A stretch of 64,000 bases of DNA, from sequence record OQ031072; one strand, 5' to 3'. Shown here piece by piece: positions 4,919 to 57,726 of the stretch. The DNA comes from Shigella phage SFPB. The notes below the pieces were generated by a model. That model did no database searches. It was not told where the DNA came from and saw nothing but the letters and a program-made list of their open reading frames with translations. Positions within the stretch are counted from its first letter, which is position 1. Each line of letters opens with the position of its first letter. Position numbers and translations under genes: made by a program.

Positions 4919-5320
4919 ATGAAAACTGAAACTAAAATGATTAATGGCAAGAAGGTAACTATTATTCTTCTTGGAGCTAGAGATGGTATCCGTATCTCTA
5001 TGAAGCTTGGTAAAGCAGTTGTACCAGCATTTGCACAGATGTTCTCTGGTTTAACCTCTAAAGATGGGGAAGCTAAAATCCCATTTAAAGAACTCGTTGA
5101 AGCTTGCTTTGAAAAGGTTGACGAACTAGATATTGATGCAATGGCAGAGACACTATTTCAGGGGGCAACAGTTAATGACTTCCCACTGAAAATTGATAGT
5201 TACTTCCAAGCGAACTACGGTGAATTTATTGACTTCTTAGCTTTTGCTTTGGAGGCAAACTTCGGAAGTTTTTTCGAGGCAAGCATTTTCAAAAGCCTAA
5301 CTTCTCAGCAGGAAGCTTAA
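4919..5320 (+). CDS. tail assembly chaperone (gpG-like)
   Basis: 133-aa acidic ORF immediately upstream of tape measure gene; conserved synteny. Confidence 0.55.
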   Translation: MKTETKMINGKKVTIILLGARDGIRISMKLGKAVVPAFAQMFSGLTSKDGEAKIPFKELVEACFEKVDELDIDAMAETLFQGATVNDFPLKIDSYFQANYGEFIDFLAFALEANFGSFFEASIFKSLTSQQEA

Positions 5321-5556
5321 GTTATTCTATGCAGACCCCGCTGACTGACGGGGCTGTAAAGGCAACTTATGATGAAGCAGATGAGATGAAATTTGTGCTT
5401 GCTATTTATGGTATGGATGGGTGTAAAGAAACACTCAACCAACTTTTTGATATGACCTTCGTTGATTTATTATCTCTACGTCAATATTTAGAAATCCAGA
5501 AGTCATATAAAGAAGAAATGGCTTACAACGAACTCAGAAAAGCAGGTAAAATTTAA
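5233..5556 (+). CDS. -1 frame extension of tail assembly chaperone (gpGT-like; predicted product 4919..5275 joined at -1 to 5275..5556)
   Basis: -1 frame is open from 5233; canonical slippery heptamer T_TTT_TTC at 5269-5275 in the zero frame; extension ends TAATG-coupled to the tape measure start. Confidence 0.5.
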   Translation, partial: LLSFCFGGKLRKFFRGKHFQKPNFSAGSLSYSMQTPLTDGAVKATYDEADEMKFVLAIYGMDGCKETLNQLFDMTFVDLLSLRQYLEIQKSYKEEMAYNELRKAGKI

Positions 5557-17261: not shown

Positions 17262-17456
17262 ATGCCAACCATTCTAGCAATCCTCTTGAAAAATCTTGGG
17301 GCATTCTTCTGGAAGCTTCTACTTTCTCTTCTTAGCGAATACATGATTGAAAAAGTGTTCTTCAAGCTTGCAAGATACCTTGCGAGTAAAACAGACACAC
17401 CTATTGATGATGAATTTGTAGATACCTTGGAAAAGGCTTTTAAGGGTGAAAAATAA
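17262..17456 (+). CDS. small hydrophobic protein (possible membrane/lysis-associated)
   Basis: 64 aa, N-terminal hydrophobic segment. Confidence 0.4.
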   Translation: MPTILAILLKNLGAFFWKLLLSLLSEYMIEKVFFKLARYLASKTDTPIDDEFVDTLEKAFKGEK

Positions 17457-17830
17457 TGAAGTGGATTGAAGATGCTTTTAAGAACAATATTGGTGCAATC
17501 GTTGTAGGTATTTTCAGTGTAATTGGTATGTACACTACAATGCAGGTCTCTGATGGTAAACAGGAAGTGTCTATCACAAATAAGTTACAGCAGTTGGATG
17601 GTTACTCAAAAGGTAACTATTCAGCTATTCGTGACTTACAATCTGATATGAAGCTCCTACAATTAGGGATGGAGAACCAGAAAGTTCAGCTAGAGAATGT
17701 TAAGGGAGAAAACGCTAAGTTGACTAAGACCCTTGATAAGTTCTCTGACAGTGTTAACAACTTAGCACAATCTGTATCAGCTTTGCAAGCAATTACAGAA
17801 CAAAATACCCAAAGCACTAAAAAGAAATAA
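17456..17830 (+). CDS. N-terminal transmembrane plus coiled-coil protein (holin/antiholin- or spanin-like topology)
   Basis: TM segment IGAIVVGIFSVIGMYTTM followed by heptad-rich region; located after the tail fibre genes. Confidence 0.4.
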   Translation: MKWIEDAFKNNIGAIVVGIFSVIGMYTTMQVSDGKQEVSITNKLQQLDGYSKGNYSAIRDLQSDMKLLQLGMENQKVQLENVKGENAKLTKTLDKFSDSVNNLAQSVSALQAITEQNTQSTKKK

Positions 17831-18780: not shown

Positions 18781-19311
18781 TTACTTGTGGAACATAGGTA
18801 TCAAACACCACAGACTTATCTTCTGAGGTTTGGACTGTACTTTAGCAAATAACTCTGTGTCATACAAGTACTGGAAGAAACCCTCATAAGGTAGCTTGAC
18901 AGTAGCCTCTTCAGTAACTTCCTTAATAACACTGTGGAAAACTACGTCAGCATACGGCAAAGCTGAGATTAAGATATTGGCTCCACCGATTACTAAAACA
19001 TCTTCCTCAATAGAACTATCAATATACTTTAGGAAAGCCCCAAAAGCTTCAGACTTAACTCTTGCTTTGCAATGAGAGTCATCTTTAAAGTCCAGACCAT
19101 AAAAGTCAAGAGAGTTTGTTAAGACAAGGTTCTCACGGTTTGGCAAAGGTTTGCTCCCAAGAGTCTTCCAAGTTTCGCTACCCATCAAGACTAACTGGTT
19201 AACAGTCTGCTTCTTAAACTCTGCCATATCTTGTTTATTACGAGGCCAAGGCATTCCAGTAGCTGTGCCAAACTCCCCGTTAATACCACTTGCAAAAATT
19301 AACTTAATCAT
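18781..19311 (-). CDS. frd: dihydrofolate reductase
   Basis: MIKLIFASGINGEFG..MPW N-terminus typical of DHFR; adjacent to thyA as in T4-type phages. Confidence 0.75.
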   Translation of the reverse strand: MIKLIFASGINGEFGTATGMPWPRNKQDMAEFKKQTVNQLVLMGSETWKTLGSKPLPNRENLVLTNSLDFYGLDFKDDSHCKARVKSEAFGAFLKYIDSSIEEDVLVIGGANILISALPYADVVFHSVIKEVTEEATVKLPYEGFFQYLYDTELFAKVQSKPQKISLWCLIPMFHK

Positions 19312-19580
19312 TTTGTAAATCCTTTGATAATGAACCAGTTTAGAACACGCTTCACAATCCTGTTCGGATGGTAAATAAGGTGAGGCTGTGGTTCATAACT
19401 TCCATAAGCCCAAAAAGATAAAATCTTTCCACATCCACAGCAACGGGTGTACCCTTCAGCGATATTGCCAGAGACAATCTCTGAAACTTCACCTTGGAAG
19501 TTCTCACCTCCACAATGGCAGCATTTAACTGGCTCACCATTATTCATGTAACACTGTGATACTCCGCTTAAGATTTTCAT
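19308..19580 (-). CDS. Cys-rich zinc-binding small protein
   Basis: CCHCGG...CCGCG motifs; ATGA-coupled. Confidence 0.4.
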   Translation of the reverse strand: MKILSGVSQCYMNNGEPVKCCHCGGENFQGEVSEIVSGNIAEGYTRCCGCGKILSFWAYGSYEPQPHLIYHPNRIVKRVLNWFIIKGFTK

Positions 19581-52425: not shown

Positions 52426-53538
52426 ATGACTACTAAGACTAAAGCACAAATCGACGCAGAAATCTATGCACTGGTTAAAGAAGGTAAACTGACCAAAACT
52501 GCAATCGCTCTGAAGTATAACACTTCAACCCGTTCGGTAGGTCGTGCTGTAGAGCGTCATGAAGCAACGCTGCTGTCAGGGAAAACCAAAGCAAAACCTG
52601 CAAAGACTCTGAAAGATATTGCTAAGAAAGCTAAAGCAACCAAGAAAGTATCTAAGCAGAAAACTGTTGCAAAAGCTGTTAAAGAAGCAGTCAAAACAGA
52701 ACCTGTGAATGCTCTGCATGAAGCAATGCAGAATAACAGCCAGATTGAATACATGATTACTGGTGATTCTGTTATCATGACTTTCGGTGCAGAGTCTGAG
52801 ATTGTTGAGTCAACTCATCCTAACTACACTGATATTGTAATGGCTGTTGTTTCAGGTGAGTACAAGAAAGCTTTTGAACTGATGAACATTCACAAGTCTA
52901 TTGAGAACTTCACTCAAGGTGCTGTAACCATCAAAGGTGACAACCTGTATTACGGTGCTGTTCAGATGCGCTCAACTCTGGTAGACCGTATTCTGGATAT
53001 GATGAAGAAAGGTGATAATGGTTTTGTTCGACTGATTGCATTCTTCGAAAAACTTATGGAAAACCCATCAAAAGATTCTGTAGAACAACTTTGGGGCTTC
53101 GTATCACACCTTGATGTTGAAATTGATGAAGAAGGTTATATCATCGGCTGGAAGAAAGTCACAACCCGTGGTGGTAAACTGTTTGACTCTCGTACCTGCA
53201 AAGTTCCAAATGATTTGGGTAACATTGTAGAGATGCCACGTTGGATGGTTGATAATAACCGTCATGTAACCTGCTCTCAGGGTCTGCACGTTGGTGCTTG
53301 GGATTATGTAACTAGCTTCTCTGGTGACACTATCCTGAAAGTTCGTGTTCATCCTCGTGATGTTGTTTCAGTACCAACTGACTACAACGACATGAAAATG
53401 CGAGCTTCCCGTTATGAAGTTGCAGCGATTGTAAATAGTCGCCGTGAAGTCATCAAAGAGTGGGATGGTTCAGAAGCACTCCACGTAGTTGTAGGTACTG
53501 CTGGTGAACTGATTTCTCAGCGTAAACGTGAAGTCTAA
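52426..53538 (+). CDS. rIIB: rIIB-like protein (by position and size)
   Basis: 370-aa ORF directly downstream of rIIA-like gene; no motif recognised. Confidence 0.4.
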   Translation: MTTKTKAQIDAEIYALVKEGKLTKTAIALKYNTSTRSVGRAVERHEATLLSGKTKAKPAKTLKDIAKKAKATKKVSKQKTVAKAVKEAVKTEPVNALHEAMQNNSQIEYMITGDSVIMTFGAESEIVESTHPNYTDIVMAVVSGEYKKAFELMNIHKSIENFTQGAVTIKGDNLYYGAVQMRSTLVDRILDMMKKGDNGFVRLIAFFEKLMENPSKDSVEQLWGFVSHLDVEIDEEGYIIGWKKVTTRGGKLFDSRTCKVPNDLGNIVEMPRWMVDNNRHVTCSQGLHVGAWDYVTSFSGDTILKVRVHPRDVVSVPTDYNDMKMRASRYEVAAIVNSRREVIKEWDGSEALHVVVGTAGELISQRKREV

Positions 53539-53580: not shown

Positions 53581-53608
53581 TTGAAAAATGTGCAGGTTAG
53601 TGTATAAT
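53581..53608 (+). promoter_or_regulatory. sigma70-like promoter TTGAAA-16-TATAAT
   Basis: -35 53581-53586, -10 53603-53608; spacer contains TGTGCAGGT, the iteron core. Confidence 0.5.
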
Positions 53609-53639
53609 TGTCTGCATGTTTAACAAAATAGGAGTGCAA

Positions 53640-54188
53640 ATGAAGAAATTTGTTTTAGGTTTGTGCTTATTCTTTACAGCACATTTAGCTACAGCGTCTG
53701 ACTGTCCAGAGCTTACAATCAGTCAGAAAGTTAATATGTTAAAAGCATATAACTATGGCGAAGGACAGATGGGAAAAGGTTGGGGAATCCCTTTAGCAGC
53801 TATAGCCTTACAAGAGTCACAATTAGGTGTCATGTTAGAAAATAAAAAGACTCATGATTATGGTGTTTTCCAAAATCACTTGAAGACTGTTGTAAAGCGT
53901 AACAAGGTATCTCCAAAGGTTGCTAAGAAGAAGCTAGTAAGTGACTTCCATTACTCAGCGAAAGAGGCTCATAAGGAGCTATTATTCTGGACTAAGGTTC
54001 ATGGTAACCCAGATGGAAAGTACTCTATGAAGCGTGTCCTAGCTTCTTATAATGCTGGTTACAAATACAAGATTCCAAAGGCTAGACAATACTCTCAAGA
54101 TGTGTACAATAACATGAAACTGCTGGCTCAATGTGAGTTTGCAACAAACATTAAAAAGGTAAAATATGAGCGAATCAAAACAATTTGA
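53640..54188 (+). CDS. secreted lytic transglycosylase-like (SLT domain) protein; candidate endolysin; start trimmed
   Basis: Signal peptide MKKFVLGLCLFFTAHLATA; SLT-like core AIALQESQLG...DYGVFQN. Confidence 0.55.
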   Translation: MKKFVLGLCLFFTAHLATASDCPELTISQKVNMLKAYNYGEGQMGKGWGIPLAAIALQESQLGVMLENKKTHDYGVFQNHLKTVVKRNKVSPKVAKKKLVSDFHYSAKEAHKELLFWTKVHGNPDGKYSMKRVLASYNAGYKYKIPKARQYSQDVYNNMKLLAQCEFATNIKKVKYERIKTI

Positions 54189-54861
54189 CATGGTTCTGTG
54201 TCATGCTTATGATATCAAGCCACTTGATTTAGATATCAGTTCTGCAAGTTGGTCAGATATTGCTAAAGCTGACTTTGCAGATACAGCAAGAAATGTTGTG
54301 TGTAGCTTTGAAGACTTCCACTCAACAAAGACACAGATTCCTTGTCAGGATTTGCTAACAGGTAAAACTGTATATGTTGGTCGTAACAGCCTTATCTTGG
54401 TTGCAAAGAACTTGGAAGAAAAACGTAAAATGGTCTTAGCAGACATTGATGGTGTTCTTACAAGTTTTGACAAGAAACTTAATGCAACTCTGTTAGATGA
54501 TGGTACTTACTCACAGTATACTAACTTGGTAGACTCTCGCAGAGCTAAACCAACATATGTTTTTAACATCCTGTGTGGTATATCAAGAAATGCTGATATA
54601 GGATTCTTAACTGCTCGTGGAGAATCACAAAGAGTTGTCACACATCTTTTCCTGAATGAGAATGTAGACAGTGATTTCCTACTGTTTATGCGTGGATTTG
54701 GTGACAATGAGATTAGTGCAGAAAGTTTGAAAGTTCGTATGCTTCAGTCTTGCATTCTACCTTACTATGATGTAGTATGCTTTATAGAAGATACGGTGAA
54801 GAACGTGGCAAAGGTTGAAAGAATCTTACCACACATCAAAACAATGCTTGTTAAAAACTGA
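54166..54861 (+). CDS. HAD-superfamily phosphatase-like protein
   Basis: Motif I-like ADIDGVLT; later LTARG and FIEDT. Confidence 0.4.
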   Translation: MSESKQFDMVLCHAYDIKPLDLDISSASWSDIAKADFADTARNVVCSFEDFHSTKTQIPCQDLLTGKTVYVGRNSLILVAKNLEEKRKMVLADIDGVLTSFDKKLNATLLDDGTYSQYTNLVDSRRAKPTYVFNILCGISRNADIGFLTARGESQRVVTHLFLNENVDSDFLLFMRGFGDNEISAESLKVRMLQSCILPYYDVVCFIEDTVKNVAKVERILPHIKTMLVKN

Positions 54862-55337: not shown

Positions 55338-55348
55338 AGTTATTATAG

Positions 55349-55372
55349 AGGCTCCTTCGGGAGCCTTTTTCA
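55349..55372 (+). terminator. rho-independent terminator
   Basis: AGGCTCC ttcg GGAGCCT then TTTTT. Confidence 0.6.
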
Positions 55373-55389: not shown

Positions 55390-55737
55390 ATGACGTTTAA
55401 AGAATTTTGTCAAGCAGCTTTTGTAATCATTTTCTTAACAGGTGTTGGTGCTTGGGGAGGTTACACTTACAAGACCAGCCAAGTTAATGAAAAGGAGCTA
55501 ACTAACCAGAGACTTGTAAGCGTTGCTAAAGATGCTTATCAAGAAGGTTTATCAAATCTTAGCTCCAATTACAAAAATGATTTGAAAGATGTGCTTGCTA
55601 AAAACAAACACACCAAAGAGGTATTGAACTATGAAAAAACTAAGACAGTCTTTATTAATGATTGTGCTACTGAGCCTTATGTCAGGGTGTTCAACGAACA
55701 AAGTGAGCAGTACCTTCAAAAACTCCCAAGTAAGTGA
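55390..55737 (+). CDS. inner-membrane spanin (Rz-like)
   Basis: N-terminal TM AAFVIIFLTGVGAWGG then coiled-coil periplasmic domain; contains overlapping lipoprotein gene. Confidence 0.5.
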   Translation: MTFKEFCQAAFVIIFLTGVGAWGGYTYKTSQVNEKELTNQRLVSVAKDAYQEGLSNLSSNYKNDLKDVLAKNKHTKEVLNYEKTKTVFINDCATEPYVRVFNEQSEQYLQKLPSK

Positions 55738-55897
55738 GAGTGACAAGTATACTCAAGAAGAAGCACGTTATGAGGTTAAAGGCACTAAAGGTGAAGACCT
55801 TGCAAGTGCTCTTGAGTTTTATCGTGATGGTTACTATGAATGTACTATTAAGGCAAACAATTTAATTGATATGATTTTGTTAGGGAATAAGCAGTAA
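55631..55897 (+). CDS. outer-membrane lipoprotein spanin (Rz1-like), overlapping the Rz-like gene in another frame
   Basis: Signal peptide with lipobox-like LMSGC; 88 aa; start lies inside 55390..55737. Confidence 0.5.
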   Translation: MKKLRQSLLMIVLLSLMSGCSTNKVSSTFKNSQVSESDKYTQEEARYEVKGTKGEDLASALEFYRDGYYECTIKANNLIDMILLGNKQ

Positions 55898-56166
55898 TGA
55901 CAGAGAAGAATGAAACATTTTTTGTGGAAGGTTATCTTCTGTTACCAAGACCAAGTAACACTTACATGAGATTTGACATTATGCCAACGGTTATGGATTA
56001 TGTAACTTGTCACATCTTTATGCAGGGTGTTTCTGCACAACTTAAACATGTTGGAAGAGATTGCAAAATACGTGTTGACAACCATCCTGAAATCAACGAG
56101 AATCACTACACATGGTTCGGGGAAGATTCTAAAGAAATCTATGCAGTCCTTAAAACAAGGAAGTGA
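55897..56166 (+). CDS. hypothetical protein
   Basis: TAATG-coupled, 89 aa. Confidence 0.4.
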   Translation: MTEKNETFFVEGYLLLPRPSNTYMRFDIMPTVMDYVTCHIFMQGVSAQLKHVGRDCKIRVDNHPEINENHYTWFGEDSKEIYAVLKTRK

Positions 56167-56737: not shown

Positions 56738-56930
56738 TTTCTGCACTAAGTGTTCTGTTGAGATGTTTGGAAAAGACACAGGGGACTTAAAAGGCCTCTT
56801 TACAAAAGCAGAGTTTGAAGCTGGTTCAGCAATGCCAGTAATCTGTGAAGGTTGTGGTGCTTTATGGGTAGACCATGAAGGTAACCGAGTTAAACCATCT
56901 GAAGATAACGAACGTTGGGAGCATTACTAA
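56730..56930 (+). CDS. small zinc-ribbon protein
   Basis: CTKCS...CEGCG pair. Confidence 0.4.
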   Translation: MADFCTKCSVEMFGKDTGDLKGLFTKAEFEAGSAMPVICEGCGALWVDHEGNRVKPSEDNERWEHY

Positions 56931-56931
56931 T

Positions 56932-57726
56932 ATGGGTATCGTAAAAATTATTAAAGGTGATATCTTTAAAGACTTTGATGGTAAGAAATTTGATATCATT
57001 GGTCACGGTTGCAACTGCATGAACTTGATGGGTGCAGGTATCGCAGCAACAATTGCCAAACGTTACCCAAAAGCTTATGAAACTGATGCTGAAGTTTATG
57101 CTACAGTAGGTGGTGAAAATCATAACCCTAAGCATCTAATGCTTGGTAACATCTCTGTAGCACGTTTTAAGCAGGGTCGAATTGCTAACCTTTACACTCA
57201 GGTTATCACTGGCAAAGATGCACGATACAACGCCTTAGAAGCAGCTTTACAGCGTCTTAACAACTACTGTAAAGTTAATCAACTTAAGAAAGTTGGACTT
57301 CCTATGATTGGTGCAGGGATTGGTGGTCTTGACAGCATGGCTGTGCTGTCTATCATCAATCAGACCATGAAAGATGTTGACGTTTATATGTATGTCTATG
57401 AAGATAAGATGTACAGTCAGTTGACTAGTCCGGTTACTGGTTGGGAAAACTTTAGTGAACCTCAATACTTTGATGGTGTTGCCGTGGTAGGCAAGGATAA
57501 AGTTACTCTCAAGGTGAAGCGTAATGGTAAGGTACACACCAGTTACCCTCCGGTTGATAAGTACAATCGAAGTAACGCTCAAGTTACCCACCCGTTACAA
57601 GGCCATTGTCACAGAGCCGTAACATTTGGTGATGATGCAAGTGTGTATATCGGTGCTGCTACAGAAGAGTTTGCAGAGGATTATATCACACATGAGAATG
57701 TTAACTATGTTGAAGCACGTAACTAA
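56932..57726 (+). CDS. macro-domain (ADP-ribose binding/processing) protein with C-terminal extension; start trimmed
   Basis: GDIF...FDIIGHGCNCMNLMGAGIAATIAK resembles the macro NAAN...GGGVAGAI signature; second Gly-rich loop LPMIGAGIGGLD. Confidence 0.5.
   Translation: MGIVKIIKGDIFKDFDGKKFDIIGHGCNCMNLMGAGIAATIAKRYPKAYETDAEVYATVGGENHNPKHLMLGNISVARFKQGRIANLYTQVITGKDARYNALEAALQRLNNYCKVNQLKKVGLPMIGAGIGGLDSMAVLSIINQTMKDVDVYMYVYEDKMYSQLTSPVTGWENFSEPQYFDGVAVVGKDKVTLKVKRNGKVHTSYPPVDKYNRSNAQVTHPLQGHCHRAVTFGDDASVYIGAATEEFAEDYITHENVNYVEARN

Follow-up and report, generated by a model that had tools for sequence, protein, structure and literature searches.

The overlapping genes at positions 55390-55737 and 55631-55897 of Shigella phage SFPB (record OQ031072) very probably encode the two-component spanin of a FelixO1-like Mooglevirus, a reading to which we assign a probability of roughly 0.9. 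The first gene would supply the inner-membrane subunit (i-spanin) and the second the outer-membrane lipoprotein (o-spanin). Both the overlapping pair and the scattered lysis genes of this phage group are already known from publications and annotations. We analyzed a stretch of 64,000 nucleotides (hereafter the window), to which all positions refer (Table 1). By sequence identity, the phage is a Mooglevirus (subfamily Ounavirinae), a FelixO1-like myophage. Over the 2.7 kb between positions 53500 and 56200, identity to Shigella phage KPS64 is 99.0%; other Mooglevirus genomes, including those of Shigella phages Sf13-Sf19 and Citrobacter phage Michonne, match this segment at 97-98.9%. In a local BLASTN comparison with Michonne (KT001916), the + strand of the window aligned with the - strand of that genome, in blocks covering Michonne positions 76963-90000 and 1-52423; with Michonne as the reference, ~26 kb of the roughly 90-kb genome falls outside the window.

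Table 1. Features discussed in the text and their positions in the window.
Feature	Position	Strand	Basis
Small protein, 64 aa, hydrophobic N-terminus, upstream of the holin candidate	17262..17456	+	ORF, position of CPT_Michonne58
Putative class III holin, 124 aa, N-terminal TMD at ~residues 10-32, long polar C-terminal domain	17456..17830	+	ORF, TMD, position of Michonne gp57
Match to sigma-70-like promoter consensus, TTGAAA-16-TATAAT, 11/12	53581..53608	+	consensus match only
Sec-signal-bearing protein of predicted GH23/SLT fold, 182 aa, T4 Vs.1 homologue (phrog_600)	53640..54188	+	profile matches, alignment, AlphaFold
Intrinsic-terminator-like hairpin and T-run, directly upstream of the i-spanin RBS	55347..55368	+	sequence; terminator annotated at the same site in Michonne
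i-spanin gene, 115 aa, predicted type II inner-membrane protein	55390..55737	+	ORF, TMD, phrog_1152, annotation in relatives
Dual-coding overlap, 107 nt: C-terminal i-spanin motif (frame 0) and o-spanin signal peptide with lipobox (frame +1)	55631..55737	+	ORFs, recurrence in relatives
o-spanin gene, 88 aa precursor, 69 aa mature, predicted outer-membrane lipoprotein	55631..55897	+	lipobox, annotation in relatives, invariant residues

Architecture and conservation of the overlapping pair

The i-spanin reading frame opens with an ATG preceded by an AGGAG Shine-Dalgarno sequence. Residues 6-27 form an uncharged run of 22 residues (FCQAAFVIIFLTGVGAWGGYTY; maximum KD19 1.62), and hydropathy analysis of the 115-aa protein revealed no second hydrophobic segment beyond it. 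This is consistent with one N-terminal transmembrane domain (TMD) at about residues 6-27, in line with the transmembrane helix that a first-pass annotation, made from the letters of the window, had placed there. We infer an N-in, C-out orientation with a periplasmic domain of ~88 residues. That domain carries the invariant motif EK..F.N.C (Cys92), encoded within or just upstream of the overlap; across the seven phages aligned, the invariant residues were E82, K83, F88, N90, C92, Y97, and N102. The first-pass annotation described this domain as a coiled coil; a heptad count put L/I/V/M at 4 of 8 a/d positions, a weak pattern, and AlphaFold run on the single sequence predicted helices throughout, at low confidence (pLDDT 52.7). 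The protein matches phrog_1152, 'Rz-like spanin' (E 6.8e-38), and was matched by 291 phage records at 75-100% identity (tblastn); it differs from its Michonne counterpart by few substitutions (e.g. T17I and R41K).

The o-spanin frame has its own ATG and its own Shine-Dalgarno sequence (AGAGG). Its N-terminus, MKKLRQSLLMIVLLSLMSG followed by a cysteine, matches a PROSITE-type lipobox (LMSG before C20) with Ser21 at the +2 position. An Asp at +2 leads to inner-membrane retention of lipoproteins. Of the window's 1,418 start/ORF combinations encoding 40 aa or more, 3 join a basic N-terminus to a lipobox, the o-spanin among them, and because so few combinations carry such a signal, its presence at the 3' end of a transmembrane protein gene is not a matter of chance. 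The other two ORFs with a lipobox lie at 24143-23898, where no adjoining partner gene for a transmembrane protein was noticed, and at 19151-19318. Beyond C20, the protein contains one further cysteine (C71) and no proline. The precursor matches phrog_4180 (unnamed, E 2e-48) and, weakly, also a spanin PHROG; its best families, phrog_4180 and phrog_2425, are both labelled 'unknown function'. Phage records matching it by tblastn numbered 266, at about 80-99% identity.

Public records treat this second gene unevenly. In Michonne it is annotated with the same start, that is, with the lipobox-containing ATG; the Sf17 record begins it at an internal GTG and thereby loses the signal peptide; and several records leave it 'hypothetical' or unannotated. 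Such records, together with the position of the frame across another gene, are what one would cite in favor of a chance +1-frame ORF that is not expressed. We find this scarcely credible, as 160 of its 267 nt fall outside the overlap, beyond the i-spanin stop, and the protein keeps 80-98% amino-acid identity across Ounavirinae. Moreover, M1, C20 (the lipid attachment site), G51, G54, C71, N76, and L78 were invariant in the seven phages aligned, down to 29% overall identity, and the frame is preceded by a ribosome-binding sequence of its own. The lipoprotein signal (LMSGC) pointed out in the first-pass annotation is thus borne out by both the pattern match and the invariance of Cys20 in the seven homologues. 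We conclude that the o-spanin start belongs at the ATG at 55631, and that public records which start after the lipobox or omit the gene need to be read accordingly.

The o-spanin ORF is read in the +1 frame with respect to the i-spanin ORF and shares 107 nt with it, so the earlier observation that it begins inside its neighbor in another frame is correct. To place this arrangement among relatives, the pair was compared with those of Michonne, Mushroom (Felixounavirus), Hafnia phage Zyzzx, Erwinia phage FIfi106 (Kolesnikvirus), KBNP1711 (phiEco32-like podophage), and siphophage Sergei. A lipobox scan found a +1-frame lipobox ORF starting 107-137 nt before the i-spanin stop in the first five, which represent three Ounavirinae groups and a phiEco32-like podophage. 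In the Sashavirus Sergei, the annotated homologous pair likewise overlaps and forms the end of a classical holin-endolysin-holin-spanin cassette, a context that supports a lytic role. Each subunit has one conserved periplasmic cysteine (C92 in the i-spanin and C71 in the o-spanin, invariant in 7/7), which fits the near-universal periplasmic cysteine of two-component spanins: it is found in 507 of 528 pairs, and its need has been demonstrated in lambda and T4 (Kongari et al. 2018, PMC6139136).

The pair therefore displays the features by which two-component spanins are recognized (Summer 2007; Kongari 2018), namely an N-terminal TMD, a lipobox without Asp at +2, overlapping genes, and periplasmic cysteines. 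Both subunits are also homologous to the FelixO1/'JH2' spanin family (tblastn, phrog_1152, and phrog_4180). The pair is labelled i-spanin and o-spanin in Michonne (Center for Phage Technology annotation), Sf17, KPS64, and many Felixounavirus records. Felix01, Moogle, and Mushroom have been placed in the 'JH2' families of both i- and o-spanins, PhiEco32 and KBNP1711 in the 'JH2' i-spanin family only, and Felix01 also in a group headed 'Overlapped' (Kongari et al. 2018, BMC Bioinformatics 19:326, PMC6139136). No spanin model of Pfam or NCBIfam matched either subunit: the i-spanin had no Pfam match at E <= 0.1, and the o-spanin had only a non-spanin sub-threshold match and weak matches to lipoprotein models over the signal-peptide region (Pfam/NCBIfam). 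The literature searched yielded no experimental study of the FelixO1/'JH2' spanin family.

Genomic context adds a further consideration. A terminator-like hairpin ends 21 nt before the i-spanin start, no good promoter was found between the hairpin and that start, and the spanin genes share a transcription unit with early/middle-type genes (rII and pnk). A setting among such genes, behind a terminator, could suit a different pair of proteins: a lipoprotein acting in superinfection exclusion or receptor blocking (like T5 Llp), and an unrelated transmembrane protein. It also speaks for this alternative that spanin function is assigned here from topology and annotation, and that the best PHROGs of the o-spanin carry no functional label. 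We nevertheless consider it very improbable. Unrelated phage groups keep a gene for a transmembrane protein paired with a lipoprotein gene in the +1 frame, the Sergei homologues end a holin-endolysin cassette, a periplasmic cysteine is conserved in each subunit, the pair is included in a curated spanin census (Kongari et al. 2018, PMC6139136), and no other spanin candidate appeared within the window.

Comparison with named spanins and proposed action

The spanins of FelixO1 and Moogle-like phages (Michonne gp139/gp138, Mushroom gp124/gp123, and Felix O1 ORF6/ORF7) are direct homologues of the window pair. They share its lengths, the 107-nt +1 overlap, the lipobox, and the conserved cysteines, and they occupy the same genomic position, after rIIB, a Vs.1-like gene, pnk, and a hypothetical ORF. 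We found no substantive difference between them and the pair described here.

The likeness to lambda Rz/Rz1 is one of functional class and organization: in both, a type II protein of the inner membrane is paired with an outer-membrane lipoprotein whose gene uses the +1 frame, and periplasmic cysteines are available for disulfides. Sequence tells otherwise, as the window pair had no Pfam Rz/Rz1 match. The lambda Rz1 gene is fully embedded, whereas the window o-spanin gene is overlapped and reaches 160 nt past the i-spanin stop. Mature lambda Rz1 is a proline-rich protein of 40 aa; the mature window o-spanin, by contrast, has 69 aa and 0 Pro. Rz1 has been described as unstructured, and lambda Rz has two periplasmic cysteines against one in the window i-spanin (Kongari et al. 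2018, PMC6139136).

T4 PseT.3/PseT.2 (117 and 99 aa in the T4 record) are similar in size to the window pair. Both pairs combine a structured, non-proline-rich o-spanin with a location away from holin and endolysin genes and a few genes from a polynucleotide kinase gene. However, the T4 genes share only 4 nt and precede pseT, whereas the window genes share 107 nt and follow pnk. The cysteines are also distributed differently, with none in the T4 i-spanin and two in the T4 o-spanin (Kongari et al. 2018, PMC6139136) against one in each window subunit. Neither subunit had a BLASTP match to PseT.3/PseT.2 at E <= 100. Proximity to pnk was considered as a sign of homology with the T4 pseT cluster and dropped, given the missing BLASTP match and the differing gene order. 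The first-pass description of an 'Rz/Rz1-type spanin pair' is accordingly apt for the functional class and inexact for the rest: the second gene is not embedded, its product lacks proline, and neither the lambda nor the T4 spanins match the pair in sequence. Complementation of lambda Rz/Rz1am has shown that unrelated spanins, those of T4, are functionally equivalent (Kongari et al. 2018, PMC6139136).

That the pair is lipidated, forms a complex, and acts in lysis is predicted from these comparisons. The i-spanin would be anchored in the inner membrane by its N-terminal TMD, with ~88 residues in the periplasm, and the o-spanin would be translated from the +1-frame start inside the i-spanin gene. 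Its signal peptidase II lipobox leads us to expect lipidation at Cys20, and Ser at +2 would direct Lol sorting to the outer membrane. If the pair acts as lambda Rz/Rz1 and T4 PseT.3/PseT.2 do, the two subunits would bind each other through the peptidoglycan mesh by their C-terminal periplasmic portions, and C92 of the i-spanin and C71 of the o-spanin probably form disulfide links. Once the holin has freed the endolysin and the murein has been degraded, the spanin complexes would finish lysis by fusing the inner with the outer membrane.

The predicted Vs.1-like transglycosylase encoded upstream

The protein encoded at 53640-54188, a member of the T4 Vs.1 family, is most likely a soluble lytic transglycosylase of the periplasm, as predicted from its homologues and an intact catalytic Glu-Ser motif. 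An AGGAG sequence precedes its start; an ATG further upstream, at 53616, has no Shine-Dalgarno sequence. The N-terminus (MKKFVLGLCLFFTAHLATA, then SD) resembles a signal peptide, in which an uncharged run of 17 residues (KD19 1.52) leads to A-T-A before S. Small residues occupy -3/-1 in most aligned homologues (A-T-A, A-V-A, A-I-A, A-L-A, and T-F-A). Invariant in an 11-sequence alignment were E59-S60, D73-Y74-G75-x-F77-Q78-N79, S136-Y137-N138-x-G140, and the cysteine pair C22/C165; in the window protein, the corresponding motifs read E59-S60, YGVFQN, and SYNAG. An AlphaFold model built with this alignment reached pLDDT 79.3 and pTM 0.75. The protein thus combines the marks of GH23/SLT family 1, a lysozyme-like alpha-helical fold and the motifs E-S, G-(L/V)-(M/F)-Q, and A-Y-N-x-G. 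The invariant motifs, the 17-residue run, and the small residues at -3/-1 agree with its initial description as SLT-like with a cleavable-looking signal peptide. The only PDB chains matched by the sequence or its 11-sequence profile (an engineered repeat protein, and PRP4 kinase at E 2e-4) do not agree with the modelled fold, and these matches were set aside as chance.

Its family membership is well defined. The protein matches phrog_600 over its full length (E 4.2e-57), as does T4 Vs.1 the same PHROG (E 2.1e-68), and a direct tblastn comparison with T4 Vs.1 gave E 5e-7 at 31.5% identity over 85% of the query. By tblastn it was found in 1,928 phage records, mostly T4-like, and the Felix O1 record annotates the homologue ORF3 as 'protein in vs-regB intergenic region'. 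The two proteins are alike in length (181 aa in T4 and 182 aa here), signal peptide, and motifs (E-S, G(V/M)FQN, and SYN(A/S)G). They differ in that the invariant C22/C165 of the Ounavirinae proteins would suit a periplasmic disulfide, whereas T4 Vs.1 has no Cys. The neighbors differ as well, with rIIB and pnk flanking the gene here and regB and vs flanking T4 vs.1. Literature searches on the function of T4 vs.1 gave only a 2006 comparative-genomics remark on a marginal SLT match.

The first-pass annotation had put this protein forward as the candidate endolysin, possibly of SAR type. In such a scheme, it would serve as endolysin or accessory endolysin, exported by Sec, cleaved or SAR-tethered, and would attack the murein late. 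Its invariant catalytic motifs (E59-S60, YGVFQN, and SYNAG), its N-terminal export signal, and a 'putative lysin' label in some records all fit. Expression timing fits as well, as ORF3, the homologue in Felix O1, reaches its peak at 25 min together with lysin ORF35; in that RT-PCR series, ORF4 (pnk) and ORF6 (i-spanin) peak at 25 min too, and the timing is compatible with endolysin and non-endolysin readings of ORF3 (Vs.1-like) alike.

Other evidence makes an endolysin role quite unlikely. The protein is a homologue of T4 Vs.1, with phrog_600 common to both and the Felix O1 ORF3 annotation in agreement. In textbook T4 genetics, gp e serves as the endolysin, and lysis fails in e mutants although vs.1 is present. 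Every close relative carries a separate soluble GH24 lysozyme that is annotated or published as the endolysin. The gene never adjoins a holin or spanin gene, following rIIB here and regB in T4, and it belongs to an early/middle-type block with a near-consensus sigma-70-type promoter match upstream, located between the rIIB terminator and the gene itself. The SAR proposal fares no better, as a rule-based reading did not find the uncleaved, TMD-length anchor of SAR endolysins: only 17 residues are uncharged, and the small residues kept at -3/-1, typical of a cleaved Sec signal, would be needless for a SAR anchor. We therefore hold that this Vs.1-family transglycosylase is probably not the endolysin of the phage. 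The labels 'endolysin' and 'RegB endoribonuclease' given to it in several records are misplaced, and a Vs.1-family label fits.

A more speculative thought, which we regard as doubtful, is that the Vs.1-like transglycosylase provides a second, holin-independent periplasmic muralytic activity during infection. Imaginable roles include thinning or remodelling of murein for faster lysis by lysozyme and spanin, effects on superinfecting phage, and host envelope signalling; nothing in the window points specifically to such an activity.

Scattered lysis genes and significance

The endolysin is most likely the soluble GH24 lysozyme of the close relatives, encoded outside the window. In Michonne, gp96 (68369-68833) matches PF00959 Phage_lysozyme (E 6e-39), and its counterparts in KPS64 (95.5% identity), Sf13-19, and Moogle are 95-100% identical and annotated as endolysin or lysozyme. 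A tblastn search of the window with gp96 gave no match (best E 1.4), because the lysozyme locus falls in the ~26 kb outside it; for the same reason, the gene was out of sight when the transglycosylase was first proposed as the endolysin. That protein, in turn, showed no homology to the gp35/gp96-type FelixO1 endolysin (PF00959). Its relationship to Vs.1 and phrog_600 and the separate lysozyme of the relatives together lead us to regard the original suggestion as quite unlikely.

The holin candidate lies far from the spanin genes. Two ORFs, at 17262-17456 and 17456-17830, directly follow the tail-fibre gene, and each encodes one hydrophobic N-terminal segment. The second corresponds in position to CPT_Michonne57, 'putative holin', and this single-TMD protein is most likely the holin, a putative assignment; an antiholin role for the 64-aa product of the first would be speculation. 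Their only PHROG matches are phrog_4038 (17456-17830) and phrog_402 (17262-17456), both labelled 'unknown function'; no holin family or other family of known function was matched. Published descriptions of the group, among them the genome papers of Moogle and Michonne, list a 'class III holin, soluble lysozyme, inner and outer spanin', with the genes dispersed over the genome. The first-pass annotation had likewise placed a holin candidate at 17262-17830, in agreement with the published 'putative class III holin', and its view that the lysis genes are dispersed matches these descriptions.

The spanin pair is thus the third lysis component that one would expect in a FelixO1-like phage, already catalogued, and its value beyond correct annotation is little. 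Two biological points stand out. One is whether disulfides formed by the single conserved cysteine of each subunit would be homotypic or heterotypic. The other, and the one of wider interest, is the function of the widely conserved Vs.1 family, noted in 2003-2006 and present in ~1,900 records of T4-like, FelixO1-like, and other phages: if the Vs.1-like transglycosylase did act as a second muralytic activity, a defined role for the family would fill a long-standing gap.

The Vs.1-like SLT protein and its labels

Two cysteines, C22 and C165 (numbered on the product of 53640-54188), are invariant in the Vs.1-like proteins of Ounavirinae, the predicted secreted homologues of T4 Vs.1. C22 lies close to the mature N-terminus and C165 close to the C-terminus, and the pair would suit a periplasmic disulfide. 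By contrast, T4 Vs.1 contains no cysteine. In the records of Mushroom, mistaenkt, Dickeya phage Kamild, Escherichia phage N2 and Klebsiella phage EI, homologues bear the label "endoribonuclease / T4 RegB-like" or "RegB family"; other public records call them "putative lysin". The name RegB seems to be a misannotation, perhaps taken over from regB, the adjoining gene in T4.

Genes around the spanin pair

The conserved 154-aa ORF (see table) is flanked by the polynucleotide kinase gene (pnk) on one side and the spanin genes on the other, with a terminator hairpin (55347-55368) next on its 3' side. A Pfam search with its product returned no match. It corresponds to Felix O1 ORF5, which has been reported to peak at 10 min, earlier than neighbouring genes. 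The Felix O1 counterpart of the macro-domain gene is ORF13, whose annotation reads "protein in tk-vs intergenic region" (T4 tk.4); together with 53640-54861, the block thus carries several T4 gene homologues. In T4 the homologues of the Vs.1-like, pnk and macro-domain genes lie spread between regB-vs.1-vs-tk.4 and the pseT cluster, and their order in the window differs from that in T4.

Features outside the spanin pair
Feature	Position	Strand	Assignment
Conserved ORF, 154 aa	54873-55337	+	phrog_2267 ("unknown function")
Macro-domain protein gene	56875-57726	+	phrog_335 ("phosphatase"), E 3e-106
Lipobox ORF, 81 aa	24143-23898	-	lipoprotein signal MLKLLIPALVVLLVG|C

Spanin calls and host names in public records

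The "o-spanin" of Shigella phage Sf17 (MF327004) is called at 5204-5401, equivalent to about 55703-55900 of the window. This call begins with a GTG inside the gene, the codon for Val25 in the precursor, and therefore loses the signal peptide and lipobox cysteine. The o-spanin call is similarly shortened in the Hafnia phage Zyzzx record, and the gene is left without annotation in FIfi106, KBNP1711 and some RefSeq versions. FelixO1-like sequence also occurs inside four records whose names point to unrelated hosts: GU169904.1 (Staphylococcus phage SA1), OK283618.1 (Listeria phage LPML1) and a pair of "Campylobacter" phage entries. In SA1, for instance, the i-spanin has a match with 75.7% identity. 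All four records are probably mixed or mislabelled assemblies.

A further lipoprotein ORF

Only three lipobox ORFs were found in the whole window, among them the minus-strand ORF listed in the table, whose signal has the textbook form. Its product matches phrog_902 (E 5e-17), likewise labelled "unknown function". The positional counterpart in the related Citrobacter phage Michonne is a "hypothetical protein" encoded in the early region, close to the genes for DNA polymerase and ligase. The product may be a lipoprotein that modifies the envelope or acts in exclusion.
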